DNA of 64,000 nt from positions 32,001 to 96,000 of the forward strand of contig JBGAHS010000001.1 of NCBI GenBank assembly GCA_044226015.1. Reading direction: 5' to 3'. Of this stretch, positions 43,996-64,000 are shown one piece after another. The stretch's first letter is position 1, and every line of letters begins with the position of its first letter. Under the pieces are notes generated by a model. That model saw only the letters and a list, made by a program, of their open reading frames with translations. It was not told the origin of the DNA and searched no databases. The position numbers were made by a program, and so were the translations under genes. The stretch comes from Candidatus Obscuribacteraceae bacterium (GTDB taxonomy: Bacteria; Cyanobacteriota; Vampirovibrionia; Obscuribacterales; Obscuribacteraceae).

Positions 43996-44889
43996 TCAAT
44001 GATGGCTTCGGAACTTCCATTTTTCATCTAGTTGATACACGAGCTCAAGTTCTGAAGTATCAACAGTCATTTGTCCAATCTTTCTAAACAGCACACTGTG
44101 TGAGCACAAAAATGCTGCGCAAAATATTATCGCGATCATGAATGTCAAAATTGAAGCTACGGCTAGCTGAAACTCAAGCGATGATTGGTTTTGGCAGTCA
44201 TGGAATTTATCTGCAGAGTTCCATTGTTTTGCAGCTGTCGTCGGGTCTGCAAAAGTTCTGTAGTCTGCAGAAAATTCCACTAGATCTGCTGATGCGCTCA
44301 AGCTGTCTCCAGCCTCAGCAGATCTGACAGAGAAAGCTTTTGTATATGCGTAATTTTTCAGGCGATCTTGCTTATGTGTTAGGAACGGCATCTCACCTTT
44401 TAGCTTTGCCTGAAGCCATGTCTCTTCAACATTGTCACGACATTGAGCATCTAATTTCTTGTTTATGCCGAGTTTGCTCCATTCCTCATTTGCATTTTGA
44501 CAGATTTCCTCACTCGTTAGTGGTGTTACAGGTGGTGTGTCGCTTTCCGTTTCGCCTGTTAGTGATGCAGCAGCTGTTGCGTCAATTTCCCTTTGGCTTG
44601 CCGGTGGCATCCCAGTTTGTAAATCAATGCGCTTGCCGCTTGATTCTTTCGTAGCAGCTTGCGCATCAATCTGCCTGCCGCTCGATTCCGGCATCCCAGT
44701 TTGTGCAGCATTGTGCCTACCGCTTGATTCTGGCGTCGCAGCTTGTGCATCATTTTGCTTGCGGCTCGAGCGTTTTGCTATCATCTCGCTGAGTTCTGCT
44801 TCAATAAGCGATTGACTCTGCTCTCTTTTGTTATTGTGTTTTAGCAAGTTATGTTTGCTTGCCCTTCTAAATTGCATCATCTTCAACAT
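43996..44889 (-). CDS. Hypothetical protein with 14-aa repeats and a C-terminal TM helix
   Basis: KQNDAQAATPESSG / RHNAAQTGMPESSG / RQIDAQAATKESSG / KRIDLQTGMPPASQ. Confidence 0.65.
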   Translation of the reverse strand: MLKMMQFRRASKHNLLKHNNKREQSQSLIEAELSEMIAKRSSRKQNDAQAATPESSGRHNAAQTGMPESSGRQIDAQAATKESSGKRIDLQTGMPPASQREIDATAAASLTGETESDTPPVTPLTSEEICQNANEEWSKLGINKKLDAQCRDNVEETWLQAKLKGEMPFLTHKQDRLKNYAYTKAFSVRSAEAGDSLSASADLVEFSADYRTFADPTTAAKQWNSADKFHDCQNQSSLEFQLAVASILTFMIAIIFCAAFLCSHSVLFRKIGQMTVDTSELELVYQLDEKWKFRSHH

Positions 44890-48251: not shown

Positions 48252-49160
48252 TCACCACAATCTAAATCGCTTAATTGCATCCCATTGCGTTTTCAGTGCG
48301 TTCATAGCTTCGTTTAATGCTTGTTTCGATTGACCTAGGTTCCAAGCGATTGCGGGGTCAATGCCGTTAGCTGAAATACACTCCAAAAGAGATATGACAG
48401 CTCCAGTCAGGCACGTATCATAGGCCACAGGGCAAGGATTAATTTGGTGTTGAATTGAGTTTGGACCGTAAGATTCATAGCATGCTGCCTTTAGCGCATC
48501 ATAGCTCAGCAAACAGCTTTTGCTAGCACTTCCTGTTGGATCTAATTCATTGATTGCTTGGAGAAGATATTTTTCGCTGAGCCTGCCAGCTGTTCCCCGA
48601 AAGGGAAAAGGCAGCGTTTCACCTTTTCCATAGTCATTGGGCGTTAATCCTGTGAAATCGACGAAGTTAGTCGGGCCATTTCCAACGTAAACGTATAGAT
48701 TAGTTCCTCCTGCTTCCTCAAACGGATCTCTGTTGACAAACCTACCCCTTGAAGGAGCATATACTCTGAAGACCGGCATGTTAAGTCCGCTTCTAGAATG
48801 GTAGTAGTAATTTGCATACTGGAATTCTGCGTCGGCACTACCATTTAGTTTGACAACAAGCCCATAAGGATCATAATTGTACTGTGCTTCAATAGCAGTT
48901 ATTCCCCCCACAGTCTTAGTCAGTTCCCTGATGGAACCCAGGCGGTCTTTACTGTAAGAGTATTGATTGGAACCTGCAATGGTGAAGTTGACTTGTCCTT
49001 GATTCAAGAATTGTTTGCCAATACTCAGGCTACCTGACGCATCCCGTTCCTCACACCTAGCTGCCCCGCACCACAAATGCTGTTTCGTCGAAGTGACACT
49101 GCCAGCAGTGCGCTCTTCGATTTTCGTTGCGCGCGAAAGTGCATCATACGAAAATTGGGT
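48252..49160 (-). CDS. Orphan Rhs C-terminal toxin cassette 5 (no ATG start)
   Basis: Open from TQFSYDALSR; DRLGSIRE, YDPYG, GRFVNRDP, NLYVYV.N.P....DFTG, then a unique tip. Confidence 0.85.
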   Translation of the reverse strand, partial: TQFSYDALSRATKIEERTAGSVTSTKQHLWCGAARCEERDASGSLSIGKQFLNQGQVNFTIAGSNQYSYSKDRLGSIRELTKTVGGITAIEAQYNYDPYGLVVKLNGSADAEFQYANYYYHSRSGLNMPVFRVYAPSRGRFVNRDPFEEAGGTNLYVYVGNGPTNFVDFTGLTPNDYGKGETLPFPFRGTAGRLSEKYLLQAINELDPTGSASKSCLLSYDALKAACYESYGPNSIQHQINPCPVAYDTCLTGAVISLLECISANGIDPAIAWNLGQSKQALNEAMNALKTQWDAIKRFRLW

Positions 49161-49357
49161 GATGTTCCCAGTGCGATTTGATTGGATTTCAGAGACTTTT
49201 AAGATTAGCAGAGTCGCTTAGTTTGTCATAATTGTATTGCGCTTCAATAGCAGTTATTCCGCTTAGTCTGCTAGTCTTCCAACAGAGTTCAAAATGGAAA
49301 CGATGAAAATTAATCATTACGTCGAATCGATTCGAAACATATTACGCTCACCGGATC

Positions 49358-50056
49358 TTAAGTGCTGGGATTGGCGCGGAGCTGACAAATCAAAATTTTT
49401 TCCACAATTTCGTTCTTTATAGATATTCCGGACTCGTTTTCAACTAAAGATAAATCCAGAGATTGGTAAATCCGCAGTGCCTGCGCCCAGCGTTGTAGCT
49501 CCATAAGACTATCTGCTAAATTGATCTGATTTTCTAAATCAATTTCATCGGCGTTCGCTGAACGTAATTCAACTGCTTTTACAAAGCAGTCTAAAGCTTG
49601 TTCCAGATAAGCGGTCCTCATCGATGGATCACAGGGGTAATCCTTAAGGATCCTACCTTTTTGCGCCAGAAATCCATCATTTAGTGGAAACATCGAAATG
49701 GCCTTATCGGCAATTAAAAGTGCATCTTTGGCGACTTGGAGTTTCTCTGCAATTGATAATGGGTTCTTTTTTGTCATCCATTTGTGTATGGCCAAACTGA
49801 TCCATGTTAGAAACGTTCCCTCATCCTTCTCTGCAAGCTCGTAGATCGCGCAAACTGTCTTCCATCCAGCCGGAAAGTCCACTCGATGAGCAAGTACTAT
49901 TAGTCTTTCGTCCTCTGTAAATCCAGAATTTGCCGTGGACCTCAGGAAATGCCGGAGCTTGTCTTTGCTTATGAATTGGTCTACTTTTGTGTTGTCGAGC
50001 ACCGTCTGAAATTGCCGACCAGCATCTGTATTCCACTTATTAATGTACTCTGCCAT
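49358..50056 (-). CDS. Putative immunity protein of cassette 4 (TPR-like)
   Basis: GGAGGT RBS; start overlaps the toxin 3' end; helical TPR-like segments. Confidence 0.65.
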   Translation of the reverse strand: MAEYINKWNTDAGRQFQTVLDNTKVDQFISKDKLRHFLRSTANSGFTEDERLIVLAHRVDFPAGWKTVCAIYELAEKDEGTFLTWISLAIHKWMTKKNPLSIAEKLQVAKDALLIADKAISMFPLNDGFLAQKGRILKDYPCDPSMRTAYLEQALDCFVKAVELRSANADEIDLENQINLADSLMELQRWAQALRIYQSLDLSLVENESGISIKNEIVEKILICQLRANPST

Positions 50057-50903
50057 TAGACACCTCCATAAACCGGGTTGCCTGGCCAGGGCAGTAAAAT
50101 GGTATCAAATAAATCCACCATGGCAATTGTGGTGGAACAGCCTTGGGCAACGGTAGCGGCAGCCTGGTTTCGTCGTGGGATTTTTCAATTGGCTGCTTTT
50201 TCGGTATCGTTCGGTAATCTGGTGGTCTTTTGCCACAGTACTCCCAGCTTCCAGAAAATGTTTCGCCTTTTCCAACAGAATCATTGCATGCCGCGTCATT
50301 TTTGTAACAGCATCCTGGATCCCGACCAGCTTTCAAGCATTTTTGAGTCTGCTGCTCACAACAATCTTTGCTTGAGCAACAAGCTAATCCGTATGGGTCC
50401 ATGAATATTGTTGGAGCATTATTTGCGTATTCGAACAAATTCGTTCCGATATTTTCCCCAAGCGGATCTCTGCTTAACCACCGGGCGAATGAGGGTGCAT
50501 AGTTTCTGAAAAGCGTTTGGTTCATGCCTGAGTTCTGGTGGAAGTACATACCAGCGTAGCCGAAGTCTGAAAACGTTCCGCTCGTGCTTAAGTAAACAAG
50601 CCGTCCGTAAGGCTCATATGAAACTATAAGATCAATGAGTAAAGAGGCACCAGTAGTGTGCGTCATTTCTCTCACTGACCCCAGGTGATCAAATGTGAAG
50701 AAATGGGTTGTTGATGCACTCGCGGCAAATATCACCTCTCCTTTGCCAAAAAACTGCTTGCCATTACTCAAACTACCAGTGCCATCTCTTTCCTCGCACC
50801 TAGCGGACCCGCACCACAAATGTTGCTTTGTGGAAGTGACACTGCCAGCAGTGCGCTCCTCGATTTTAGTTGCGCGCGAAAGTGCATCATGCGAAAATTG
50901 GGT
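50040..50903 (-). CDS. Orphan Rhs C-terminal toxin cassette 4 (Cys-rich tip)
   Basis: TQFSHDALSR head; DHLGSVRE, RWLSRDP, DPYGL, then CCSSKDCC...CC...C. Confidence 0.85.
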   Translation of the reverse strand, partial: TQFSHDALSRATKIEERTAGSVTSTKQHLWCGSARCEERDGTGSLSNGKQFFGKGEVIFAASASTTHFFTFDHLGSVREMTHTTGASLLIDLIVSYEPYGRLVYLSTSGTFSDFGYAGMYFHQNSGMNQTLFRNYAPSFARWLSRDPLGENIGTNLFEYANNAPTIFMDPYGLACCSSKDCCEQQTQKCLKAGRDPGCCYKNDAACNDSVGKGETFSGSWEYCGKRPPDYRTIPKKQPIEKSHDETRLPLPLPKAVPPQLPWWIYLIPFYCPGQATRFMEVSNGRVH

Positions 50904-51158
50904 GATGTTTATGGTGGGAGAAGTCTTGATTTCGGTGAAGTCGAATGATGCAGCCAAAGTCTCTGGGTGAGAAGTCCGTCGTGCTTTTAATTCTTCCAGT
51001 GGAAGAGGTTCGAGGTTTCCGCATCCTCATGGTAATAAAAGTCAGCTGAATTCAAGGCTAAGCATTGCTCAAATTTTTGAAATGTGCATAACAGCGACCG
51101 CATCAACTATAATTTAAGTCATAGTTAGTTATGACTTACAAAAGTCCATTTTTTAGCC

Positions 51159-51761
51159 GTGGATCGATTTAAGGATTATTCGCAATTGAAAACATACTCG
51201 GACAAAGGGATCACCGAGTACGTTTCGGGGAATGGAGAGTTATTGCTTCTGGCAAGCTTTTCGACAACTTTTGAACGTGGCCAGTTGATTATCTTTGATT
51301 ACAAAAACGAAACCAGAACGCCGACAGTAGGACGCGACGGAAAATTACTTTTTAAGGGATTTAGCCCCTTTTTTCAATGCCGAATGGAATTCGATTTCAA
51401 GAATGGCCATCTGACCTACACTCCTGCGAGTCCTTCATTGAAGGAGCTAGGAAAAGGCGGTCAGCTCGTAGACTTGATTAGTGAAATAAGAATTGTCTCG
51501 ATAATTCCTTCTATGTTATTTGGACTCTATTCTCTGCCATTTGCAAACTCAGAATCGATCATTGTTCCATCAGAAGTTGAACTCGCAACAGGAACATCAA
51601 CTAGAAAAATCCGCTACAACAACAGTGGCTACATTGAGGAAATCATCAGAGACTCCGTACAGGAAGACCGCTCTGTTTTCCTTTCTGGATTGCAGCTAAC
51701 AAAATCTACTTCCTCTTACAACACTAAAATTCTGGTGGGAGAACATCGCTGGGAGGAGTAA
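51159..51761 (+). CDS. Hypothetical protein, possible orphan immunity gene
   Basis: 200-aa ORF; start YSQLKTYSDKG resembles YVSCREYEDVG in the 47576 gene. Confidence 0.5.
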   Translation: MDRFKDYSQLKTYSDKGITEYVSGNGELLLLASFSTTFERGQLIIFDYKNETRTPTVGRDGKLLFKGFSPFFQCRMEFDFKNGHLTYTPASPSLKELGKGGQLVDLISEIRIVSIIPSMLFGLYSLPFANSESIIVPSEVELATGTSTRKIRYNNSGYIEEIIRDSVQEDRSVFLSGLQLTKSTSSYNTKILVGEHRWEE

Positions 51762-51829
51762 CTCCCAGAATGCATAGCAGAATGTCCAATGAAAGTCTTG
51801 CTTCGTTCAACTGCAATCGATACTTTAAG

Positions 51830-51882
51830 GAAGGTTCCCAGCGGATTCAGCTCTGTGGTGACTCTACCCATTTCATCGAAGG
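51830..51882 (-). pseudogene. Short YD/Rhs repeat remnant
   Basis: Reads SFDEMGRVTTELNPLGTF. Confidence 0.55.
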
Positions 51883-52057
51883 ACCAACGTTTACCAGGCT
51901 CTGAGAATTCCAGACCACTCAACTGTCCCGGCTTATCAAATAACTCTCGCACTTTGCTTCGTGCTCAAATGGTGGCTCAAAGTTTTTGGCTAGATATGGG
52001 CATTACAGAGAATCGAGTATGTATACTGTATAGTGTTAGCCACTGTATGAGGCTCTA

Positions 52058-52435
52058 ATGACGTTTCTTATACATCAATGTCGGCACTTTATTCGACGAA
52101 CCGAACTAAGCGTACAAATTTTTTTTGGGTTCACTCCTGATTTCGAAAAATTAGATTACGTGTTTTACTCGCGCCCCCTCTTTTCCAAGGAAGGTTTGAT
52201 CAGGGATCACTTATCTTTACTCCCATTTGCAGACACCTCCTTGAAGCGAGTTGTTAAAGACTTGGGTGGTTGGGAGCATATTACAGATCCCGAGTATTTA
52301 CCGAATAGCGAAGAGTATGAAAGACTAGCCGAAGTCGGTTTTTCAAAGGATGATTTTAATAAAACTAGAGAGTATCTGTCCGATAGAAGCGCCTATAACC
52401 GAAGAGCCCTAGCTCGACAAAAGGAAAAGAAGTAA
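52058..52435 (+). CDS. Hypothetical protein convergent with cassette 3
   Basis: ATG with GAGG RBS, 125 aa, stops 13 bp from the cassette 3 stop. Confidence 0.55.
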   Translation: MTFLIHQCRHFIRRTELSVQIFFGFTPDFEKLDYVFYSRPLFSKEGLIRDHLSLLPFADTSLKRVVKDLGGWEHITDPEYLPNSEEYERLAEVGFSKDDFNKTREYLSDRSAYNRRALARQKEKK

Positions 52436-52448
52436 TCTCCTAATTTTT

Positions 52449-53297
52449 TCACTGACTAAGATTGACCGTTGCTCCGGGGAACTTCGTTAGACATTTATTA
52501 ATATCTTCTGCAAAATCAGTATCACAATCCTCCAGTTCCTGAGCTAGCACCGGATTGTTACTGGCTTCCGGCTCGTTGGCATGGCAGCCTAATTTGTCGC
52601 TCCGGCAATCATTCCATTTGTTCAGCGCTTTAAGAACACACATGTTCATTTTCATCTGAATAAAATTCATTTTGATATTTTTTATGGCGTTAGTGATTGC
52701 GTGCGCTGAAATCATCATAACGGCTGTGCTAGCCACGACGGCAGCGCCGACTGGGGTAAGGGCGATAGTCGCTGCCTGAGCATATCGACCGGACGGATCT
52801 ATATCCAAAGTTGGAGAGTTTTCTACATATCCGTAAAGATTCAACCCTCCTTTTTCTCCAATCGGATCTCTGTTGATGAATCTACCAAGAGCAGCATTAT
52901 AAGCCCTGTAGACCGGCATGCTGAGTCCACTTCTTCCATGCAGATAGTATCCTGCATATTGCATGTCAGCAGAGCTGGTGCCCGTCACAATGGTCTCAGC
53001 GACCACACCATAAGGATCATATGAATATCGGGTTTTAATGGCACCAGTGGAATCGGTCAGCTCTCTTATAGAGCCCAGGTGATCTTTGTTATAGAAATAA
53101 TTTGCGGGCGTGCCACCACTAAAGTTCACCTGGCCTCTGCTGAAGAATTGCTTACCATTGCTGAGACTGCCTGATGCATCTAGTTCCTCGCATCGCTCAC
53201 TCCCGCACCACAAATGTTGCTTCGTCGACGTAACACTACCTGCGGTGCGCTCTTCGATTTTCGTGGCACGCGAAAGTGCATCATACGAAAATTGGGT
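52449..53297 (-). CDS. Orphan Rhs C-terminal toxin cassette 3 (no ATG start)
   Basis: TQFSYDALSR head; DHLGSIRE, GRFINRDP, DPSG, then a hydrophobic helix and a Cys-containing tip. Confidence 0.85.
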   Translation of the reverse strand, partial: TQFSYDALSRATKIEERTAGSVTSTKQHLWCGSERCEELDASGSLSNGKQFFSRGQVNFSGGTPANYFYNKDHLGSIRELTDSTGAIKTRYSYDPYGVVAETIVTGTSSADMQYAGYYLHGRSGLSMPVYRAYNAALGRFINRDPIGEKGGLNLYGYVENSPTLDIDPSGRYAQAATIALTPVGAAVVASTAVMMISAHAITNAIKNIKMNFIQMKMNMCVLKALNKWNDCRSDKLGCHANEPEASNNPVLAQELEDCDTDFAEDINKCLTKFPGATVNLSQ

Positions 53298-53508
53298 GAT
53301 GTTTCCGGTGGGATTTGATTGGATTTCAGAGGTCTTTAAACACTTTACCCGCTACTATCAAAACGAGTTCAAGTAGGAATCGATATTGCGAAAGGGTGAA
53401 CATTTTGCCAAATCGATTCGAAGTCAACCTTTCAGCGCGAACCTGTTAGTAGTTGTACCGCATTATTCCAAACAAAGTCCCATTTCGTCACTCTTGAGGT
53501 GGAGGGAG

Positions 53509-54177
53509 TTACAATGCTGCATTAAGTCTATCGGAGAAAGGGATTCCTTTTTCAATATATTTAAGTCGAATTGAATCCCACGTATAAACATAAGCATGTA
53601 GGAGTTTTCCTCGGTCAACAACGTGGTTGGTAATGATCAGAGTTTTCGGAATTTTTCCTTCTTTTGACAGCACGAATTCTGGTTGATACAAGGATCCTGT
53701 TTCCAATACTTTCTGTATTTTTCCATGAGCGCAAAGGAATACGGTCGTCAAAATACTGCGTGGACCGTCTGAAAGAATAGCCATCTTATCATCCAGACGA
53801 AGGATGGAAATTGGTTTACCGTAGCAGAGTTCGTCAACATCATCGCCATTGTCAGAGCAATAAACTAATCTATTTTTTTTGTCAAAGATTTTTAGAACCG
53901 CTTGTTCCCCGGCTTTGCCCCTGAGCGCCCCAGGCGTTCTCATTATGCGAACAGAGTAGTGTTCAGTCTCGGTGTCGCTTTCGTTTCTAACAGTCCAATC
54001 GTAAAGAAACCAAAGTGAACTGTGTTGATCTCTCCACTTTCTCCAACGCGCAAGGCTTTTCACATCTGCTGTAGTTTTAGCTTTCACTGTTCGAAGCTCT
54101 TCATAGGCGTATCCGGCTGGCAACCAAAGAATCGCGGATATGAAAGACACAGCAAGCACATAAACCAATCCTGGCAT
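53509..54177 (-). CDS. Putative periplasmic immunity protein of cassette 2
   Basis: Starts 3 bp after the toxin stop; signal peptide MPGLVYVLAVSFISAILWLPAGYA. Confidence 0.7.
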   Translation of the reverse strand: MPGLVYVLAVSFISAILWLPAGYAYEELRTVKAKTTADVKSLARWRKWRDQHSSLWFLYDWTVRNESDTETEHYSVRIMRTPGALRGKAGEQAVLKIFDKKNRLVYCSDNGDDVDELCYGKPISILRLDDKMAILSDGPRSILTTVFLCAHGKIQKVLETGSLYQPEFVLSKEGKIPKTLIITNHVVDRGKLLHAYVYTWDSIRLKYIEKGIPFSDRLNAAL

Positions 54178-54180
54178 AAA

Positions 54181-55140
54181 TCATCCACCCTTGGACTTTT
54201 GTAAGCAGCCTTTATCGCACCGAGTCTTTTTAGCTTTTAAGCATTTTTCGCATTTTTGAATTGCTCCTAAATATCCGGGATCTCCACCACCAAATTTACT
54301 AATACCCTCCTCCAGCCCGAATTTACTGACGTAATACCCGGCAAGCATGGAACCCGCTCTCAAATTTTTTGCAGGATCTGACATTTCGCTCCACTTCGCA
54401 CCAACTTGGCTTGCAGATTGCTCGTTATATATTTGCAAAAGACCCTTTGCACCAGAGCCTTCTGTGTTGTCTACACTCGGCTCAAAATTATCGGGTGAGT
54501 GTGGAGTGCTTTCACGAAAAGCCATACATAACAAAAATTCCGTACCCAGTTGAGTCCCAACTGTGCCAGCTACGGTCTTGCCTGAATAGTTACAACCTCC
54601 GTCCAGCAACCTAGCAACTTGAACGCAAGTGAGAAGCCCTAGTGGGTCCAGGTAACGAATTGGATTTCCGCCAACATAGCTGTAAATATTTAAATCACCG
54701 GCTTCACCAATTGGATCTCTACTGAGCCATCTGCCTAATGAAGCTGAGTATTGACGAAACCAAGTCATGTTCAATCCACTTCGCATATGTGAGTAGTAAC
54801 CAGCATATTGAAAATCAGCGTCCTGTGAGCCTGAGATCTTGTTGACGACACCATATGGATCATAACCATACAGTGAAACAATGGTCCCTGAGCTATTAGT
54901 TAATTCCCTCACAGATCCAAGCTTATCTATGCAATAAAAATAATTAGATCCTGTGGCAGAATTAAAATTGATTTGTCCCATGCCGCAGAACTGCTTTCCA
55001 TTGCTCAAGCTTCCGGACAGATCTCGTTCTTCAGACTTCTCTGAATCGCACCATAAATGTTGCTTCGTCGAGGTAACACTGCTTGCGGTGCGCTCCTCAA
55101 TCTTCGTTGCGCGCGACAGTGCATCATACGAAAATTGGGT
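54181..55140 (-). CDS. Orphan Rhs C-terminal toxin cassette 2, lytic transglycosylase (SLT-like) tip
   Basis: TQFSYDALSR head; DPLGL; tip motifs MAFRES, GAKGLLQI, DPAKNLRAG. Confidence 0.85.
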   Translation of the reverse strand, partial: TQFSYDALSRATKIEERTASSVTSTKQHLWCDSEKSEERDLSGSLSNGKQFCGMGQINFNSATGSNYFYCIDKLGSVRELTNSSGTIVSLYGYDPYGVVNKISGSQDADFQYAGYYSHMRSGLNMTWFRQYSASLGRWLSRDPIGEAGDLNIYSYVGGNPIRYLDPLGLLTCVQVARLLDGGCNYSGKTVAGTVGTQLGTEFLLCMAFRESTPHSPDNFEPSVDNTEGSGAKGLLQIYNEQSASQVGAKWSEMSDPAKNLRAGSMLAGYYVSKFGLEEGISKFGGGDPGYLGAIQKCEKCLKAKKTRCDKGCLQKSKGG

Positions 55141-55191
55141 GATGTTTCCAGTGGGATTTGATTGGTTTTCAGAGGCTTTTAACGAGCTGAC

Positions 55192-55515
55192 CTAGCGACA
55201 GGAATTAAGTGCGCTAAAAGTCCGGGGCGGTGTTTTCGTTTGCTCAAGAACAATTCTGCGATCTAGCCAAACGGATTGAAGATGATCGTGGTTCCAAAAG
55301 CTGAGCTGGTCAAGCTCTTTCGCTAAAATGCTTGCCTTTGCAAAGTAGTCTTCAGCGGTTTTAAGGGAATGATTGCGGACTGCATCGTTTCCACATTCGA
55401 TGAGCCTTGCAAGTTCTATGTTCTTCGATCTAACTATGCCGTAATAGCCCACAAGAAGTCCCACAGACAGTGAGGCAAAGATCCTTTTTGACTTCGAGGA
55501 AAATTCTATATTCAT
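55192..55515 (-). CDS. Small membrane-anchored protein, possible orphan immunity gene
   Basis: 107 aa, N-terminal TM helix and one TPR-like helix pair; follows a decayed Rhs fragment. Confidence 0.5.
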   Translation of the reverse strand: MNIEFSSKSKRIFASLSVGLLVGYYGIVRSKNIELARLIECGNDAVRNHSLKTAEDYFAKASILAKELDQLSFWNHDHLQSVWLDRRIVLEQTKTPPRTFSALNSCR

Positions 55516-55611
55516 TATTCAGTGCGTATGTGTAAGGATTTACGTCCTTTCGGTCAAACGAGGGAGTCAACTGCTGGCTGATTGAAACCAGGGTTTGGTT
55601 TCACATTGTAA

Positions 55612-55818
55612 TCAATACCGGCATGTAACGTTGTTCCTGGCCCAGCATCGTGAGTCTTTGTAAGCTAGTGGATCACGGGAAAAAAATGCCCCACGAACTG
55701 GCTCATACAATCTGTACACTTGCGCAATTAAACCATTCCGGGAAAGACGATAATAGCCGGCGAAACCGAAGTCTGATTCGCGTGTCCCTGCAATTTTGAT
55801 TGATTGACAATAATACAT
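55612..55818 (-). pseudogene. Decayed Rhs core fragment
   Basis: ESDFGFAGYYRLSRNGL..QVYRLYEPVRGAFFSRDPL; lacks the head and the tip. Confidence 0.7.
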
Positions 55819-55943
55819 ACGACTTCGACATTGACGTTGTTGTTCGCCAGATTAGGCTACTACGAGTTCTCGGTTTCCTGAACTTACGCTTCTTCCCAAT
55901 CGTATTCTGATTTCAACGTATGTTGGATAGTTCTCTGCACGAA

Positions 55944-56588
55944 TTAAGGTGCATTGTCGACAATTGATTTGTCGGTTTCTATAATTGCCTCAATCGCGGA
56001 GGCGACTCTTTTCAATGTTTCATTACGGGATTTTTTCGCAAGAGACAGGTAACTAGGCAGCATTGTTGAGCGACAGGCTAGCAGCATATTTAGTGCGGTT
56101 ACCTTGTCTAGTGGTTTCTTTGATGTCCACCACAATTGAGCATATGATTCAGATTGGCTCCAGCCTGTCCCGGCTAGCAGTTGCGCCGCGTTGTCTCGAA
56201 TCACTTCACTGAAATCACTCAAAAGAAAATGCATTGCTAGCCGTTCTCTCAATGCAGAGTCTCTCAACCTTCGGCACCGCAGAAGAAAATACAATCTAAT
56301 TGATTCCTCTGGATACGGAAGAATTGCCAACTTTGATATCTCGTCATCAGAAATTGATTTAACAAGCAGTTGTGATTGCCAATCCAGAGTTATTACGTGT
56401 TTTATTGCAAGATGTTCTTTCTTGGTCCAAGCCAATGGTGCAGAATCACAAAGCAACTCACAGAAGTCCTTGACCAGTTCGGCTAGGTTTGAATAGTTAC
56501 TCAAAGAACAATTCTCTTCCTCGATCAATTTAAGGTGCTTCTTCAAGTTCGAAATTTTTTCTTTAAGGATCATTACATTCTTCATCAT
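55944..56588 (-). CDS. Putative immunity protein of cassette 1 (helical/HEAT-like)
   Basis: Start overlaps the toxin 3' end; SDFSEVIRDNAAQLL is a HEAT-like segment. Confidence 0.6.
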   Translation of the reverse strand: MMKNVMILKEKISNLKKHLKLIEEENCSLSNYSNLAELVKDFCELLCDSAPLAWTKKEHLAIKHVITLDWQSQLLVKSISDDEISKLAILPYPEESIRLYFLLRCRRLRDSALRERLAMHFLLSDFSEVIRDNAAQLLAGTGWSQSESYAQLWWTSKKPLDKVTALNMLLACRSTMLPSYLSLAKKSRNETLKRVASAIEAIIETDKSIVDNAP

Positions 56589-57492
56589 CTACAGCTGGGG
56601 TGTCGCCTGTAAAGCCACCATTGCATCTTCTTACGCAATAGCTCAAATATTGCACAGCCCAGAGAACACAACACTTGTATTTTCTTGGGTCTGGGTCGCA
56701 TCCGCCCGGTCCGTACATTTTATCGCAATAACCAGCACCAAGTTCTTTTGTATTATGCAGAGCATCAAATTTTTGATGACAACAGCGAAGACATCTCACC
56801 TTAGTACCATCTTGACACTCGAGAAATGGAAATTCATTTGGACGACCAATCGCAAAGTCTTCAGGCCAGGGAGTGAATTGTCTCTTTCGTGGCTTTGCCG
56901 CGTTCATTGTTAGTGGAATGCTAACAGGCGCCCCTGATGCACAAGCGCCTCCAGCGCATCCCATAAGACCTGTGTGGTCTACCCAGCGGATTGGATCATT
57001 GGAAACGTATGAATATAAATTTGGACCAGCGTTTTCACTTAGCGGATCTCTGCTAAGCCATCGACCATTAATTGAGGAATATACTCGATAATACGTCAGA
57101 TTTAAGCCAGATCTGACGTGTAGATAGTAATCTGCATACTGAAAGTCCGCGGAAAGAGTGCCTTGGACTTTGGTGACATCTCCATAAGGTCCATATGCGT
57201 ATTGCGCGACTATAGCGCCAGAGCTATCTGTCATTTCCCTTATACTTGAGGGAGGCGCATCCTTTGTAAATTGGTAGTTTGTACTTGAACCAGCATTAAA
57301 GTCTCGCTGTCCTCTTGCGAAGAATTGTTTACCGCTACCAAAGCCGCCGGTTAGGTCACGCTCCTCGCAACGTTCAGACCCGCACCACAAATGCTGCTTC
57401 GTAGAAGTGACACTGCCAGCGGTGCGCTCCTCGATTTTCGCTGCACGCGAAAGTGCGTCATACGAAAATTGGGTGTTTTTGTATGTGTCCAA
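56563..57492 (-). CDS. Orphan Rhs C-terminal toxin cassette 1 (Cys-rich tip), recombinase-proximal
   Basis: TQFSYDALSR head at 57474 (possible TTG start at 57492); GRWLSRDP, DHTGL, then a tip with many Cys. Confidence 0.85.
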   Translation of the reverse strand: MDTYKNTQFSYDALSRAAKIEERTAGSVTSTKQHLWCGSERCEERDLTGGFGSGKQFFARGQRDFNAGSSTNYQFTKDAPPSSIREMTDSSGAIVAQYAYGPYGDVTKVQGTLSADFQYADYYLHVRSGLNLTYYRVYSSINGRWLSRDPLSENAGPNLYSYVSNDPIRWVDHTGLMGCAGGACASGAPVSIPLTMNAAKPRKRQFTPWPEDFAIGRPNEFPFLECQDGTKVRCLRCCHQKFDALHNTKELGAGYCDKMYGPGGCDPDPRKYKCCVLWAVQYLSYCVRRCNGGFTGDTPAVDDEECNDP

Positions 57493-57521: not shown

Positions 57522-58592
57522 CTAAGAAGTGCTGCTGGAATTCTTGCGAATTTTGTTTGGTGCTTCTTCGTGCCCCATAAGTTTGAGGAAATTGTTCGTA
57601 ATTTTCTCCATCGGCTGCCGTAATCTCTCCACGTCAATGACCAAATATCCAAATGTGGTGTCATTCTTTACGGAATGATTAGCTAGTTTTTTCAATGCAT
57701 AATGAGGAATTCCAAGGCTCTCAGCCTTCGTCAAAAACGTGCGGCGCAGGTCGTGAATTGTAAAGTGACAGTTTGAATGCTCTCGAAGTTTTTGAAGCGT
57801 CGCATCAAAGTGCGTGATGCCAGCACGTCTCCCTGGAAACACAAAATCTGATTTGCTAGAAGCAAACCGTCTCTTTAAGAGCCTTGTCAGAAAACTGCTG
57901 AGAGGGAGTACATGCGCTCTATGGTTTTTAGTTCTCTCTCCATCAATGGCGACAGTTTTTGCTTCGAAATCGATGTCCGACCATCTCAAGGAGGCGGCCT
58001 CAGCTCTCCTGAAACCAGTGAGCAATACGAAGAGAAGATAGTCGCGGACTGTTTCGCTTCGCACAGTCTTCAGAGCCGAATACCACCGAGTCAATTTAGA
58101 GTCTGGAATCATGCCCTGCCTTACAGTCGCCCGATACCAGCGCTTATTTTGTGTAAGCACGTCAACTGGGTTGTTTCTCAATAGCGGGCGCCCGTTTTTC
58201 TCATGATAACGACGAAGAGCGAAATTGAAGAGCATTCTCATAATGCGCATCACCATGTTGGCCTGAAGCTTGCTTGCTTCTGTTGAGTGCGTACCGATAT
58301 CTGAGTGCTTCTTCTCAATCATTGCCGAGCTAATTGAAGACAATGGTAGGTCTATCCAATCACTCAGATGGTGCGCAACAAGAGCGTTGTAGATGCGAAC
58401 AGAAGACTGACGCAATTCTGGCTTCGACTCTAAATAATCTCTGAGAACAGTTCTAAGCGTTTTTCCTCTAGATTTCTTTTTAGAGACCTGGCGCTTTGCG
58501 AAGCTGGTTTGCTTAATGCGATTCTCAATCCTTGAGACTAGACCCGGGCCGCTTTTGATTCTAACCATCACAATAATTCTTAGTTCAGTCAT
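57522..58592 (-). CDS. Tyrosine recombinase/integrase
   Basis: Complete catalytic set: TGFRRAE (R), TKNHR (K), HDLRR (H-x-x-R), LANH (H), TFGY (Y); SAM-like core-binding domain; GGAG RBS before ATG 58592. Confidence 0.93.
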   Translation of the reverse strand: MTELRIIVMVRIKSGPGLVSRIENRIKQTSFAKRQVSKKKSRGKTLRTVLRDYLESKPELRQSSVRIYNALVAHHLSDWIDLPLSSISSAMIEKKHSDIGTHSTEASKLQANMVMRIMRMLFNFALRRYHEKNGRPLLRNNPVDVLTQNKRWYRATVRQGMIPDSKLTRWYSALKTVRSETVRDYLLFVLLTGFRRAEAASLRWSDIDFEAKTVAIDGERTKNHRAHVLPLSSFLTRLLKRRFASSKSDFVFPGRRAGITHFDATLQKLREHSNCHFTIHDLRRTFLTKAESLGIPHYALKKLANHSVKNDTTFGYLVIDVERLRQPMEKITNNFLKLMGHEEAPNKIRKNSSSTS

Positions 58593-58932
58593 GTGCTTCT
58601 CCACAAATTTTTTTCCAGTTTGGAGATTGGCACTACACATAACTCAAACAAGTTGAACAGACTCATTAGAATGCAATTCGAATTGAAGTTGCGTTCTCTC
58701 ATTTCCCATGCAAACGTGTCTTTTGATGGTGTTAGAAAGCTTTGCTCCACGAAGAGCAAAAAGAGTTACCTCTTCCGCTTGTTCATTAAATTCTGAGTTT
58801 GTGGTTCGAGGGGGATGTATTTCTGTGTCATCAAAGATATACTCCTCCAATAAATTTCTTCCCGGTTGAAAGATAACAACTGGTGCACTGCGTCAAGTGC
58901 CCCAGGCATGCCGTTTCTAAAGGAGCGACGTA

Positions 58933-59790
58933 ATGTCAAAATTTGCGACAATGGCCCTTTCGTTGAGCATTTGTATTTTTGGAAATTTGATTCCAGCAAA
59001 TGCCCAATGTGTTGGCGGAAGTCCTTCATCAGCGGTCACGTCTATAGATGAAACTGGGAATTTTCCATCAAGTCGTATGTTGGTGGACGGGCTAGGAACG
59101 ACCGTGGACACTGGCACCGCAGGAAAGATAAAAGTAAATGTTAGCGCCCTGATTGCTGCACCGCAGCGGGTGGGTTGGTGGACGCCTCTCACGACTGCGG
59201 CAACGACGTTCAGCGCAGTGGGCATGACTGCCGTACCTACTGCATCTGGCACTGCAGCCAATGCTAGTGGCACATCAGGCAACTTGATAAAATACAGTAC
59301 AGCGACAACGGTGAATGCAGTTGGCGGAATTCGGTCAACTGCATTCACTGACGCGCGATATCAGTACTCGCCAACATTTGCTACGAGAGTACGTACCAGC
59401 GCCTCTGGAATAGCGAGCCAACGAATATGGATAGGACTGGCGGCAAGCAACCCCAGCGGAAGTGCTACGCCAACAGCTAATCTCGCCTCATTTCGATATG
59501 ACACCGGTGCTGGCGATACGACGTGGAAATGTGTGAGTTCAAATGCTTCCACAAACACGGTGGTTGACAGTGGAGTTACAGTTGCTACAAGTACTACTTA
59601 CGACATGTTTGTAGACAGCTCCGATCCTTCAAAACTCGTGTACACAATTAACGGTGCTATTGTTGCAACGATCACTACTAATTTGCCAGTGGACAATACA
59701 AACATCGGACCGAATATTTCAATCACAAATCTCCTGGCGGGAACTGCTCGAGATTTGAGCGTCGGCACAACTAGAATCCAGCAATATTAG
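58933..59790 (+). CDS. Secreted Thr/Ser/Gly-rich beta-strand protein, first gene of the Rhs operon
   Basis: AAGGAG RBS; signal peptide ending ANA; lectin-like beta-sandwich appearance. Confidence 0.7.
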   Translation: MSKFATMALSLSICIFGNLIPANAQCVGGSPSSAVTSIDETGNFPSSRMLVDGLGTTVDTGTAGKIKVNVSALIAAPQRVGWWTPLTTAATTFSAVGMTAVPTASGTAANASGTSGNLIKYSTATTVNAVGGIRSTAFTDARYQYSPTFATRVRTSASGIASQRIWIGLAASNPSGSATPTANLASFRYDTGAGDTTWKCVSSNASTNTVVDSGVTVATSTTYDMFVDSSDPSKLVYTINGAIVATITTNLPVDNTNIGPNISITNLLAGTARDLSVGTTRIQQY

Positions 59791-59800
59791 TGAGGTAACT

Positions 59801-61123
59801 TTGAAAACTGTGAAAAAGTGGTCAAATCATTGTTTTGCGCTTGCTGTTGTATTTCTTGCAGCGCAGCCAGTATTAAGCGCAACGGCTCCAACGCCCTTTA
59901 TTGGAACTGCTGGAGAAATGCTCTCTCCGAAAACGGTCACTATGGGAGTTAAGGCTTCCATTGGGAACTCTATCCACTTTACAACCGACGGAAGTACGCC
60001 TAACGGAGCTAGCACAACCTATCTCAATCCATTCACAGTAACAACTTCTACAACGTTAAAAGCCATTTCCATCGACGGCTCGCCCAATCCCGTAGCTACA
60101 TTGTACATCGATCTGCCGTCAGTGTATCTGGATGCCGAAGAAGGCATTGTTCCAGCTACTGGAAATCCCAACCCAGTGATTGTTTGGACTGACCAATCAG
60201 GAAATTCTAATAGTGCAAGTGCCATTAGCGGACAAGATCCAAAGTTACTTCCAAATTCAATCAATGACTTAGCCGCAATTGAATTCTCGGGACAATATTT
60301 CAACCTTCCTGCTGGTTTTGCTGATTTCACAAAAGGCGTAAGCATATTCATAGTCGCTAAGACTGCCTCCTTGACCGCTGGAGCTACTTTGCTCGATATC
60401 GGCAATGGCAGCAGCGGAAATAACATAAAAGTGCGGATTTCGAATACGGGTTCTAAAGCTGAGTTCGATGTCTATAGTGGTACCACCAGCAGTGCCGCGC
60501 AATCAGCCAGTGCTCTCAGTACCAGTGAGTACACTCTAATTGAAGCTGTGCTTGTTCCGAATGTCTCGGGAACTGATGCGACCGGAACTATCTATGTAAA
60601 TGGGCAGGCTGGAACGCCAGTCACAAACATGTTTTTAGCAGCAAATACAAGTAGGTCTATTAATACAATAGGTGCTGCTGCTGCTGGGTCCAGTCCGTAC
60701 AGCGGAAAGATCGCAGAGCTGCTTATTTTTCCAAACGCTATAAATAATCGACAAGATGTCGAGGCAGTTCTGCTGCAAAAATTTGATTTATTGCGTCAAC
60801 AGCCTCCCACACCACAGATCAGCGTTGCGGGAGGAAATAAGAACGGTCCAACGCAAGTCGTTATAAGTTCGGCAGATGACACATCCGTCCTTCACGTGAC
60901 CACCGACGGAACGACGCCGAACGCCTCCTCTCCCATTTTCAATGGCTGCCCTATTCTCATTAACTACACCACGACGCTGAAAGCTATCGCAGTAAAGAAT
61001 GGAATTTCCAGCAGCGTTGCTTCCGAAACCTATACCCTCAACGCCGACCAATGCCCGACTCCGAGCCCATCGGATATGGTTGCGCCCACAATAAATTTAA
61101 CCGTGCCTGTTCAAAGTCAATAA
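59801..61123 (+). CDS. Secreted protein with two chitobiase/Fn3-associated (CHB_HEX_C-like) modules flanking a LamG-like domain
   Basis: IHFTTDGSTP...TTLKAI and LHVTTDGTTP...TTLKAIA; WTDQSGN...YSGKIAELLIF; GAGGT RBS and TTG start. Confidence 0.75.
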   Translation: MKTVKKWSNHCFALAVVFLAAQPVLSATAPTPFIGTAGEMLSPKTVTMGVKASIGNSIHFTTDGSTPNGASTTYLNPFTVTTSTTLKAISIDGSPNPVATLYIDLPSVYLDAEEGIVPATGNPNPVIVWTDQSGNSNSASAISGQDPKLLPNSINDLAAIEFSGQYFNLPAGFADFTKGVSIFIVAKTASLTAGATLLDIGNGSSGNNIKVRISNTGSKAEFDVYSGTTSSAAQSASALSTSEYTLIEAVLVPNVSGTDATGTIYVNGQAGTPVTNMFLAANTSRSINTIGAAAAGSSPYSGKIAELLIFPNAINNRQDVEAVLLQKFDLLRQQPPTPQISVAGGNKNGPTQVVISSADDTSVLHVTTDGTTPNASSPIFNGCPILINYTTTLKAIAVKNGISSSVASETYTLNADQCPTPSPSDMVAPTINLTVPVQSQ

Positions 61124-61139: not shown

Positions 61140-64000
61140 ATGAAATTTATCAGAATGAATAACCGCTCGCGTTCGGCACTATTGATGGTGCTCCTATTGC
61201 TTAGCATGGTGCCTTCGCAAATGGTTTTATCTGCGCCTGCTGAACGCATTTCAATAAAAAAGCAGCATGAGGCTAGCAACACTGCTAACCCACGCCCAAA
61301 AATTGAAATTGGCGACTCATCGCTTTCATTTCCTGCGTCCCCCACGGACAGTGATCTCATAAATTGCCACGTATTTTTGGAGCCATTAGCACCGTCTGAT
61401 CAAGATGTTAATCAAAAGGAAAACAAAGAGCTTGCGACCGCAATCCTGAAGTATCTAAAAAGGCAGAAATCAGAAGATGTATCTGCACTTACTTCATTCT
61501 TGCAGTCTAATCCTAAGTCACGATGGACGGCTTCTCTCGCGTTGAATGTTGCGCAAAAATTGTTTGATGCGGGTTATCTAAATGAAGCAGCCGATTACTG
61601 GGAAAAATCATGGAATCTGTCTAAAGATAAGAAAGATCCGGCGATGAAAATGGTTGCAAACTCAGCCGTATCGCATTTGGTGCAACTGGAAGCTCGCCTC
61701 GGGTTAGCGGAAAAGCTCGAAGAACATTTGAGATTAGCTTCTTCACGTGTAATGGCGGCGTCAGATATGTTGCGGCTAAAAGCTGCACAAGATGGACTCT
61801 GGACCATGAACCAAAATGAAGGCATTGCCTTCAAATGTGGTCCATATGGGCTAAAGTCCCTTGCACTTTCAAAAAGCCCTGGGCTGCAAACCACTCGCTC
61901 ACCTGAAGAAGTTGATCAAATAATCAAAACCGCAGATTCCACGAAGCGTGGAACAAATCTAGAGCAGTTGAAAGATCTTGCTCGTAAATTGGATTTGGAC
62001 CTTTCACCTGTTAAGCGTAAGTCCGGATCTCAGATTCCAGTTCCTAGCCTCGTGCATTGGTCCAAAGGACACTTTGCTGCCATTCTCGAAGAGTCCAATG
62101 GTTTTTACAAAATCGAAGATCCTACTTTCGATTCTGACGGAACAAAATGGGTGAGCGCAGCTGCTCTTAATGCTGAGAGCGATGGCTATTTCATGATTCC
62201 TTCTGACAAAGTGGGCGCAAACTGGATTACGCTCGACGATAGCGAAGCAAGAAATGTTTGGGGAAAAGGTTATGCCGCGCTTCCTCAACAATTCAAAACT
62301 CCTTATTGCCCAAAAACACCTTGCGCTGGTGGTAATTGCAAGCCCAAGGGAGGATCTGGAGGAGGACCTGATTCGTGTGGTATGCCTGTAGCGTCAGCGT
62401 TTTCAATGAATGCCACCTTGAACATCGTGGATACGCCATTGACGTATTCGCCACCAGTAGGGCCTGAAATGGGGGTAGTTGTAAATTACAACTACAATGA
62501 GGGACAACAACCATCAACGTTTTCTTTCACCAACCTGGGGCATAACTGGAGCCTGAACTGGCTCTCTTACCTTACCATTGATAGCACAGACCCAATCCAC
62601 CGGATAGTTAACGTACGCGTCCGTGGTGGAGGTTATGAGACATACAAGGAGGCATTCAACCACGATGCTTATTCACTGGCGATCATTGCAGAAGTCAACA
62701 ACGCTGGCGTGATTAGTTGGGAGCGACGGATGCCGGACGGAAGTGTCGAGAAATACGAAAGAAAAAATGCAGCAGGCGACACATTCTTTCTAACGCAAGT
62801 ACTCGACCCGCAAGGTAAAGCTGCAGTTTTAGCCTATTCTTCAAACACTGTGACTGACCCAGGCTATTTCCGCCTGGCTTCGATAACAGACGCTTGCGGC
62901 AACTCTCCAATGACTGTTGCGTATGACTCAAACATCTCAACAGACCCTGGCTATTACAAGGTAACCGGGGTGACAGATGGCTTTGGTCGCTCAGCGAGTT
63001 TTGCTTATAGCGCAGATAAGAGCCAGTTGTTGAGCATGACGGATGCAGTTGGTAACCAATCTAGCTTTCGCTATCAGACGGATACGGACTCGACTTTCAT
63101 CAATCTCATGGTGTCACCGTACGGCAGTACGCAATTCTATCGCTACACTCCTGGAGGTGATACCGACACTGTTCCAGAAGGACTAAAATTCACATTGCCA
63201 GACGGAACAAGCACTCGCATCGAAAATTGGTTGAGTTCTATCAAACAAACTTACTTCTGGGATAGAGAAGCCTCTGAAATGTATCCCAACGATGCGTTCA
63301 ACAATGTGTACACACATTGTCAGACCACAAGATGGCTTTTTATTTCGAATTCTATAGAGTCTTCAATCCCTAGCTGGACTAGGAAGCCATTGGAAGCCCC
63401 CGTGAACTATTACAGCGTTGGACAAAGTGGGCAGAATGCAACTTCGGCTGGCGGTCTTACGCGATATCAGCAGATTGCCCAGCAGCTGGTGCCAATAAAA
63501 AATAGTATCACTGTTGGTGGCACCGTTACCGCGGGTAATCTAATCAAGGTTCAAATTCGTGATTTAGGACTTATTGATTCAGGAGACATTGTTCTCTCGT
63601 ACCAGGTCGTCTCTGGCGATACTATTTCTACTATCGCCGCCGGGCTTGCACAGAGTTTCAACAATGATCGGTATTGCCAGGGATATGGCATAACAGCGGC
63701 TGCAGTGGGGAACGTGATAACAGTAACTTCTCTTACTGCCAATGATTTTGACAGTAGCAAATTTGCAAATTTATCGGGTTCAATAACAGAGACCTTAACT
63801 TTTGCGTCTGGAACCAACCGGGTTCAGAACTTCAGTTTCAGCGGCACTCCTACTGCAGGACAGGTGTATGCAATTACTGTTACGGATTCCAGCCTGCCTG
63901 GTGGCTCTCAAACAGTGAGTTATACAGTTCAGGCTGGCGATAGCAATTCAGATATCGCGCAAGCACTTTCACTTGCAGTAAACGCAAATACGAACCTGCA
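61140..64000 (+). CDS. Large Rhs/YD-repeat protein with signal peptide, TPR-like region and C39-like cysteine peptidase domain (partial, runs off the window)
   Basis: Translated by hand, no stop seen in the segments read, and absent from the ORF track, consistent with no in-window stop: MKFIRMNNRSRSALLMVLLLLSMVP...; FKCGPYGL, VHWSKGHFAAI, IEDPTF; YD repeats LTQVLDPQG, LASITDACG, VTGVTDGFGR, LLSMTDAVGN. Confidence 0.88.
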   Translation, partial: MKFIRMNNRSRSALLMVLLLLSMVPSQMVLSAPAERISIKKQHEASNTANPRPKIEIGDSSLSFPASPTDSDLINCHVFLEPLAPSDQDVNQKENKELATAILKYLKRQKSEDVSALTSFLQSNPKSRWTASLALNVAQKLFDAGYLNEAADYWEKSWNLSKDKKDPAMKMVANSAVSHLVQLEARLGLAEKLEEHLRLASSRVMAASDMLRLKAAQDGLWTMNQNEGIAFKCGPYGLKSLALSKSPGLQTTRSPEEVDQIIKTADSTKRGTNLEQLKDLARKLDLDLSPVKRKSGSQIPVPSLVHWSKGHFAAILEESNGFYKIEDPTFDSDGTKWVSAAALNAESDGYFMIPSDKVGANWITLDDSEARNVWGKGYAALPQQFKTPYCPKTPCAGGNCKPKGGSGGGPDSCGMPVASAFSMNATLNIVDTPLTYSPPVGPEMGVVVNYNYNEGQQPSTFSFTNLGHNWSLNWLSYLTIDSTDPIHRIVNVRVRGGGYETYKEAFNHDAYSLAIIAEVNNAGVISWERRMPDGSVEKYERKNAAGDTFFLTQVLDPQGKAAVLAYSSNTVTDPGYFRLASITDACGNSPMTVAYDSNISTDPGYYKVTGVTDGFGRSASFAYSADKSQLLSMTDAVGNQSSFRYQTDTDSTFINLMVSPYGSTQFYRYTPGGDTDTVPEGLKFTLPDGTSTRIENWLSSIKQTYFWDREASEMYPNDAFNNVYTHCQTTRWLFISNSIESSIPSWTRKPLEAPVNYYSVGQSGQNATSAGGLTRYQQIAQQLVPIKNSITVGGTVTAGNLIKVQIRDLGLIDSGDIVLSYQVVSGDTISTIAAGLAQSFNNDRYCQGYGITAAAVGNVITVTSLTANDFDSSKFANLSGSITETLTFASGTNRVQNFSFSGTPTAGQVYAITVTDSSLPGGSQTVSYTVQAGDSNSDIAQALSLAVNANTNL

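Follow-up and report, generated by a model that had tools for sequence, protein, structure and literature searches.

The window analysed here, a stretch of 64,000 nucleotides from Candidatus Obscuribacteraceae bacterium (positions 32001-96000 of contig C11, in a genome of 8.2 Mb), carries a polymorphic toxin locus of the Rhs type with orphan modules, in which a full-length RHS-repeat gene, a conserved core, variable C-termini and adjacent probable immunity genes were all present. The initial annotation had pointed to a 36-nt dyad motif in the coding heads of five cassettes, starting at 49120, 50863, 53257, 55100 and 57434, and had proposed it as a recombination site. The motif was confirmed at these positions with 0, 2, 2, 2 and 3 mismatches respectively, with no occurrence expected and none obtained in 100 shuffles, and was found to belong to a repeat family of about 300 bp having five copies in the window. 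The five heads are the 5' ends of minus-strand Rhs tip reading frames. The Rhs-associated core profile (TIGR03696) scored above its cut-off in all five, and each head leads into its own, different C-terminal domain followed by a probable immunity gene. At a second locus, described below, family matches to Ntox37 were obtained in 1 of the 17 tips scanned and to Imm53 or DUF4279 in 4 of the 5 neighbouring genes scanned.

The full-length Rhs gene starts at 61140 and runs past the window to C11:100069. Within its reading frame, at C11:99088 (window-equivalent 67088), it contains a further copy of the site, which runs opposite to those of cassettes C1-C5 of the window. This expression-type site is designated E, and the names C1-C6 denote the cassettes of this first locus as distinct from the contig names; the sixth cassette, C6, lies beyond the full-length Rhs gene at C11:100925. 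A tyrosine recombinase gene has its 3' end (57522) 47 nt short of the first site, and two accessory genes and the Rhs gene run divergently from it. A second locus was found at C11:1.239-1.288 Mb, with 13 sites to the left of a full Rhs gene, one inside it and three to the right, so that the sites number 7 at the first locus and 17 at the second. All 24 share one codon phase, two of them lying inside the full-length Rhs genes, and all 22 outside these genes at the two assembled loci point away from their own Rhs core. Five sites at the first locus, which carries the recombinase, and 13 at the second are inverted relative to the expression site. The opposite orientation of C1 and the Rhs gene was confirmed by a separately assembled contig of the X1 run (possibly the source sample), which reaches from C1 across the recombinase into the 5' part of the Rhs gene, of which it contains 3.7 kb.

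The heads were compared on the coding strand, numbered from the first base of the heptamer CACCCAA (+1), by which the dyad occupies +7 to +42. The comparison revealed a frozen element, offset from the dyad, that consists of the 7-bp spacer CACCCAA and the arm TTTTCGTATG. Positions +1 to +13 and +15 to +18 were invariant in all 24 heads and +14 in 23 of them. The T-Q-F-S-Y codons showed zero synonymous diversity while the other 23 of the 28 codons all varied; these counts were made on 23 of the 24 heads, one head with a codon deletion being left out. The chance of the five frozen codons being the first ones is 1 in 98,000, a figure which ignores relatedness and the conservation gradient. In control heads with long upstream homology (contigs C2, C3 and C5), these residues are encoded by different codons. 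The site is asymmetric across the 24 heads, the spacer and the right arm being conserved and the left arm variable. In C1, the copy nearest the recombinase, 9 of 10 left-arm positions are a mirror image of the right arm across the 7-bp spacer, compared to 3-5 of 10 for the other 23 sites in the same register; with 24 sites and 21 registers allowed for, such a mirror arm is expected by chance at about 0.03. Of the four left-flank bases that are invariant, three (-10, -4 and -2) agree with the C1 mirror, and a weaker non-coding consensus common to the cassettes extends out to about -30. A tyrosine-recombinase site is very likely to lie at the homology boundary on this pattern of conservation, from which we infer both the 7-bp register of the spacer and a core site formed by the spacer and the first arm of the dyad, mostly not by the dyad itself. 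A reading as a XerCD/dif site was set aside on the 7-bp register and on an apparent lack of resemblance to dif.

The mapping of crossovers through the nucleotide differences between heads, as proposed in the initial annotation, bracketed the exchange point 5' of the dyad centre. Homology to the Rhs core ends at one common point in all 21 cassettes. At -3 to -1, TAA was found in all three expression-type copies and CAT in 19 of the 21 cassettes, which places any exchange with the core rightward of -1. The two sites flanking the second core share 433 identical left bases (100%) and their right parts diverge from +19; this perfect 433-bp inverted repeat (C11:1271676-1272108 and 1279436-1279868) brackets the second Rhs core together with its expressed tip, and no coding content was identified in it. 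Two expression-type copies differ at 2 of 120 positions on the left and at 32 of 120 on the right, where the differences begin at +21. The left flank of C4 is 97% identical over 926 bp to that of a second-locus cassette which encodes an unrelated toxin. Conversely, three unrelated left flanks precede copies of a single toxin (92-96% over about 715 bp). This sharing of flanks by different toxins, taken with the TAA and CAT split, places the crossover within +1 to +18.

The recombinase of the window scored 76 bits for PF00589 against a cut-off of 27, and the catalytic R-K-H-R-H/W-Y residues were invariant in an alignment of 10 proteins. The arm-binding domain PF13356, by which a lambda-like integrase with an arm domain would be recognised, is absent from the window enzyme and from that of G006:C15 and is present in the G019 and G031 relatives. 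The five best database relatives (P0002-P0006) also have no arm-binding domain, the arm-less form being conserved at 54-59% identity, and together with the window enzyme and G006:C15 they form a small, supported arm-less clade in the tree; the deep branches disagree between the two recombinase trees. The G006:C15 enzyme likewise lies beside a short-boundary Rhs head. The closest named relatives are labelled by their sources as Candidatus Obscuribacterales or Melainabacteria. A short tail only follows the catalytic domain of the window enzyme, and a promoter and terminator scan around its gene was at chance level.

The loci of related integrases were fetched and searched for Rhs heads. These loci were picked from ranked integrase matches, two of them for Rhs; heads below 33% identity were not counted, and some loci labelled as having no Rhs (G101 and contig C4 of the present genome) adjoin other Rhs types. 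A head lay within 4.5 kb of the integrase in 33 of the 49 matches and in 22 of the 25 best-scoring ones, which suggests descent of the recombinase from Rhs-targeting integrative elements; a separate clade of 11 integrases had none with an Rhs head. The usual order in the relatives is full Rhs gene, tip, integrase and orphan head, sometimes stacked three deep, and the homology of the orphans has a constant starting codon, which lies about 28 nt upstream of the position of the CACCCAA spacer. A GCAC-N8-RTGC motif precedes 8 of 22 orphan heads and none of 14 core-type heads. By their layout, these units would be integrative elements that replace the toxin tip. A possible history, put forward tentatively, is that bacteria of Obscuribacterales type carry a family of such elements, whose integrases target a fixed Rhs codon and so exchange the tip, and that in the present lineage one integrase lost its arm domain, its site moved 28 bp downstream and the enzyme became a resident invertase, giving a reversible, lossless shufflon of two or three loci and about 30 tips.

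Table 1. Coordinates, strand and basis of the features described in the window (positions in the window; a dot marks features given no strand).
Feature	Position	Strand	Basis and remarks
Silent Rhs tip cassette C5 (Rhs-associated core and variable C-terminal domain)	48252..49160	-	In frame from spacer; TIGR03696 above cut-off
Probable immunity gene of C5	47576..48280	-	Open reading frame (ORF) overlapping toxin end; role inferred from position
Silent Rhs tip cassette C4	50040..50903	-	TIGR03696 above cut-off, in frame
Probable immunity gene of C4	49358..50056	-	Weak TPR matches; role inferred
Left flank of C4, with a 200-aa + strand gene (51159-51761)	50905..51830	.	Sequence comparison
Silent Rhs tip cassette C3	52449..53297	-	TIGR03696 above cut-off, in frame
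Possible convergent immunity gene of C3	52058..52435	+	ORF; role inferred
Silent Rhs tip cassette C2	54181..55140	-	TIGR03696; weak lytic-transglycosylase SLT match below cut-off
Probable immunity gene of C2	53509..54177	-	ORF; role inferred
Silent Rhs tip cassette C1	56563..57474	-	TIGR03696 above cut-off, in frame
Probable immunity gene of C1	55944..56588	-	ORF; role inferred
Tyrosine recombinase, R-K-H-R-H-Y present, no arm-binding domain	57522..58640	-	PF00589 above cut-off
Rhs operon gene 1, no family match	58933..59790	+	ORF, profile search
Rhs operon gene 2, LamG and Fn3-associated domains	59801..61123	+	Profile search
Full-length 2309-aa Rhs gene, 5' part (C39 peptidase, RHS repeats)	61140..64000	+	Profile search
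Candidate core site C5	49145..49171	-	Left arm 49162-49171 (variable, 10 bp), spacer 49155-49161, conserved right arm 49145-49154
Candidate core site C4	50888..50914	-	Spacer 50898-50904; sole head with a change at +14
Candidate core site C3	53282..53308	-	Spacer 53292-53298
Candidate core site C2	55125..55151	-	Spacer 55135-55141
Candidate core site C1, 36 nt past recombinase stop codon	57459..57485	-	Spacer 57469-57475; only near-symmetric copy
Dyad of C5, perfect 8-bp arms, +7..+42 of site on coding (-) strand	49120..49155	.	Motif match
Dyad of C4, imperfect	50863..50898	.	Motif match
Dyad of C3, outer arms perfect	53257..53292	.	Motif match
Dyad of C2, one arm mismatch	55100..55135	.	Motif match
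Dyad of C1, one arm mismatch	57434..57469	.	Motif match

A shufflon-like inversion, by which the arm-less recombinase acting at the CACCCAA spacer would swap the Rhs toxin tips, is the favoured interpretation, with a probability of about 0.58 on the sequence evidence. The five heads would be stored Rhs tips, each starting with the spacer and the 10-bp arm that are also found in the full-length Rhs gene. The enzyme would cut at the spacer and invert the central block of promoter, recombinase and Rhs core, by which the constant body of the Rhs protein would be joined, with the reading frame kept, to another toxin tip along with its immunity gene. An event between E and C1 would flip 9.6 kb and join the Rhs body in frame to tip C1. 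Inversions between a left and a right site would keep all cassettes pointing outward, as observed, and no immunity gene would be lost. The second locus would be served in trans by the enzyme of the first. The dyad would give only its first arm to the core, and its centre may be accessory. We infer the action of the enzyme on this site, and inversion as its main reaction, from the layout and the conservation described above.

Several observations weigh against the inversion reading. The second locus has no copy of the recombinase and is decayed, with two frame-broken cassettes and IS66-like and RIT-like insertions. RecA could act on the heads as well, since they are about 90% identical over their first 90 bp and contain perfectly matching stretches of 18-50 bp, and their conservation declines as a gradient, which gene conversion could yield. 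The duplicated cassettes, the 433-bp duplication and a 173-bp core remnant at the second locus are beyond what conservative inversion alone can produce. In the relatives, the integrase lies on the same strand as its nearest head in 31 of 33 cases, which fits integration and not inversion, and arm symmetry is not general among them: 2 of 22 orphan heads score at least 7 of 10, and the orphan heads average 4.0 compared with 3.7 in core-type heads. The window enzyme is without the extra C-terminal domain that is credited with the inversion bias of Rci, the invertase of the R64 shufflon. At the first locus, no alternative joint was found in the contigs of four runs, a kind of contig that drops rare variants and breaks at repeats, and the contigs of the probable source sample (about 10-14x) cross the C1 and C2 sites without a branch and with no strand-changing joint listed. 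The two-sided array was found only in this genome and in none of the 103 family genomes at the loci examined, and exact site patterns had no match among metagenome or viral contigs. In one X2 contig, the C1 flank is joined to a head of the second locus; this contig is likely an assembly chimera, as its differences lie beyond a 34-bp stretch common to both heads.

The same site and enzyme might instead work mainly by excision and re-integration of cassette circles, new tips entering at the expression site and old ones being pushed outward, with the left arrays produced by a rare historical flip. This is unlikely, although it draws on the one-strand, often stacked order of the relatives, on the fixed codon at which their orphan homology begins and on the motif confined to orphan heads. 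It also explains better than inversion the duplicate cassettes and flanks, which occur at both loci and to either side of a core, and the symmetric C1 site could permit excision, as symmetric sfx sites do (PMC11852207). Taken alone, however, it does not account for the long arrays, of 5 and 13 sites, that lie upstream of two independent cores and point outward, and the window enzyme has lost the arm domain that its integrating relatives keep.

It is distinctly improbable that the boundary is a fossil of past site-specific insertions, with tips now exchanged by RecA or gene conversion only and the recombinase inactive or unrelated. The graded identity of the heads, the want of switched joints in the source-sample contigs, the 433-bp inverted repeat around the centre of the second locus and the missing recombinase there would all suit it, and homologous recombination over 522 bp is the route demonstrated for Rhs in Salmonella (PMC3967940). 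Against it, two heads have an intact core although the exact identity that they share from the spacer onward extends over just 18-21 bp, C1 has a non-coding left arm that is a mirror image of its right arm, and the catalytic residues are intact in an arm-less form that is itself conserved.

The dyad described in the initial annotation is real and is placed exactly as stated, though its role is probably different. Of the five window copies, those at 49120 and 53257 have perfect 8-bp inverted arms on either side of the 20-bp centre and the remaining three have imperfect ones, and a perfect outer dyad is present in 11 of the 24 heads across contig C11. It was said to abut the homology boundary; it lies near, as homology with the full-length Rhs gene begins at the CACCCAA spacer, 6 nt 5' of the dyad when read along the coding strand, and the spacer and the dyad have one base in common, the last of the former and the first of the latter. 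The first arm (+7 to +14) is very likely part of the site and lies in the frozen element, while the 36-bp dyad as a core was unsupported. Free variation of synonymous positions had been named as an argument against the dyad, and this is what was found for the second arm, whose wobble bases are kept in 16 and 20 of the 24 heads with synonymous diversities of 0.38 and 0.31 against a downstream mean of 0.35. The annotation had also allowed that the dyad could arise by chance from its codons; for Thr-Lys-Ile, the codon usage of the genome gives the second arm about 10% of the time, and the second arm is probably a codon coincidence. In the outer helix, 95% of cells pair when G-T is allowed, but compensatory change was found in 0 of 8 pairs, and 8 of the 23 distinct rows have lost the C-G pair. 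Two type-1 heads of the 24 keep the core and lose the second arm, and in six heads of a second type (contigs C13 and C3) the spacer is retained, while the arm is another one and the dyad is missing. When the + strand was folded as a single strand, it gave z = -2.85, +0.50, -1.41, -1.00 and -2.54 for the five window heads, so that the hairpin is stable in only two of five. The covariation score of the whole hairpin exceeded that of most shuffles (3/500) but was rejected as support, since it comes from three cells of the inner helix, in which only 63% of cells pair.

The centre of the dyad (+19 to +31) is more conserved than background. Codons 6-10 stay more conserved than those downstream (diversity 0-0.2) in a second count on 20 of the 24 heads, with three divergent heads and one indel head left out, and the pentamer TTTCG occurs three times, at +9, at +24 and inverted at +36. 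On these two grounds, the centre may act as an accessory site. That the 36-bp dyad is itself the site, as a duplex or as an attC-like bulged single-strand hairpin, is highly improbable despite its pairing and its conserved centre, given a second arm that varies like background, an outer helix without compensation, heads that do without it, crossovers 5' of its centre, no attC-type boxes in the 24 heads and an enzyme that is not an integron integrase.

Integron cassettes move as units with a conserved non-coding flank, and a special site lies beside the recombinase gene. The present cassettes resemble them in having a conserved non-coding flank, in being apparently mobile as units and in the special site that adjoins the recombinase. 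They are unlike them in that there are no attC boxes and no covarying hairpin, and in that sites occur in both orientations and in coding sequence. The attC inverse-core and core box consensus was matched by none of the 24 heads, and the integron integrase profile TIGR02249 gave 20.6 bits against a cut-off of 265, which shows that the enzyme is not IntI.

The R64/IncI1 shufflon (Rci, sfx, pilV) is similar in having a recombinase beside multiple in-frame sites and a constant N-terminus with alternative C-termini (PMC11852207, PMC3414803). Its sfx site, with a variable left arm, a conserved 7-bp spacer and a conserved right arm (PMC11852207), has the layout found here. It differs in that its cargo is an adhesin tip, not toxin and immunity, and in that here the constant part and the recombinase lie in mid-array and would themselves flip, with 7 and 17 sites. 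The window enzyme, whose activity is a prediction, has no long C-terminal extension and does not appear to be an Rci homolog: among the 12 matches listed of 73 plasmid records matching it, none was annotated as Rci or named as a shufflon recombinase. The best plasmid match was NZ_LN614829.1, a 14.6-kb plasmid of Legionella fallonii with a 42%-identical integrase. The Rin invertase of Bifidobacterium prophages, which has no arm-binding domain, is likewise an arm-less tyrosine invertase with direct and inverted copies of a short asymmetric crossover site before each variable C-terminal cassette and inside the expressed gene (PMC6109161). There, the inversions are demonstrated and the target is a phage receptor-binding protein with an 11-bp site and 4-5 cassettes (PMC6109161), whereas the present case is a chromosomal polymorphic toxin system whose enzyme probably descends from arm-bearing, Rhs-linked integrases.

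Rhs orphan arrays also combine a full-length Rhs gene with strings of silent tip-immunity modules (PMC2935791, PMC3967940, PMC5361080, PMC5727410). In these papers, C-terminal displacement is attributed to homologous recombination (PMC2935791, PMC3967940, PMC5361080), it is stated that no integrase was known for tip exchange (PMC2935791, PMC5361080), and integrases near Rhs are noted with no site given (PMC5727410). The orphans there lie downstream and carry core fragments of variable length, for which homologous recombination is invoked, whereas the present modules all begin at exactly one base, flank the full-length gene on either side and share a defined site. The rAID of Bacteroidales (PMC12247911) and the Xer-linked poly-immunity arrays (PMC3482391) share a tyrosine recombinase beside arrays of conflict genes with conserved inter-module motifs. 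Their immunity genes are co-oriented and their motifs intergenic (PMC12247911, PMC3482391), while here the motif is inside the toxin reading frame, where it would rebuild an expressed toxin, and the toxin and immunity modules are bidirectional.

How bacteria exchange toxic Rhs tips has been an open question since the C-terminal displacement model. The present locus makes it testable with a single gene and two oligonucleotides, as the enzyme can be named, a candidate site of 27 bp and the expected crossover window are defined, and the substrates are marked by nucleotide differences. If true, an integrase-derived invertase would give Rhs C-terminal displacement its first site-specific mechanism. 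With a reversible switch, a clone could change its weapon and still keep all its immunity genes, a form of phase variation for interbacterial toxins. The recombinase and its site could also serve synthetic biology as an orthogonal multi-site invertase. No description of a site-specific Rhs tip switch was found in the literature searched; Martinkus 2026 (Curr Biol), cited in 10.64898/2026.07.13.738213, could bear on the novelty.

The site pattern was further searched in the 103 family genomes, where only a related head type was found, in six genomes of one genus, and a DNA search of the family genomes matched one full-length gene. A search with the recombinase protein for close homologous loci in genome and metagenome contigs returned only distant integrases, among them a 41% match on a 2.5-kb contig without an Rhs head.

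The six type-2 heads lie on contig C13 (100269-103561, minus strand) and contig C3 (1586-4694, plus strand), each with a sharply defined 5' boundary and with CACCCAA as its spacer. Both contigs end within a head, and from these ends the heads point inward, as if they formed a third two-sided array without an assembled centre, the adjacency of the contigs being a guess. Stacked units of integrase and tip downstream of a full-length Rhs gene, with a fixed homology start, were seen in G019:C40, G097, G110 and G104 and probably form a family of Rhs-targeting integrative elements. On contig C4 (23998-28097) of the present genome, an arm-bearing paralog of the recombinase (43%) adjoins a 788-codon fragment of a different Rhs type.

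At the second locus, the head at C11:1261330 is an orphan whose site is preceded by 173 bp of Rhs core of the expression type, unlike the other 21 cassettes, and looks like an ordinary displaced tip. The second array is interrupted at C11:1.255-1.258 and 1.282-1.285 Mb by what we take, from sequence features, to be a RIT-like recombinase cluster and an IS66-like element, and a XerC-like gene lies about 9 kb beyond its right end. At the first locus, a short near-copy (C11:100697-100760) of the Rhs core sequence C11:98265-98327 is situated between the expressed immunity gene and C6. The two secreted-looking genes at 58933-61123 of the window precede the C39-peptidase Rhs gene, and a similar gene is found upstream of Rhs on contig C2, hinting at a dedicated export or display module. 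Imperfect 42/84-bp repeats were also noted at window positions 44569-44778, within a 297-aa ORF (43996-44889).

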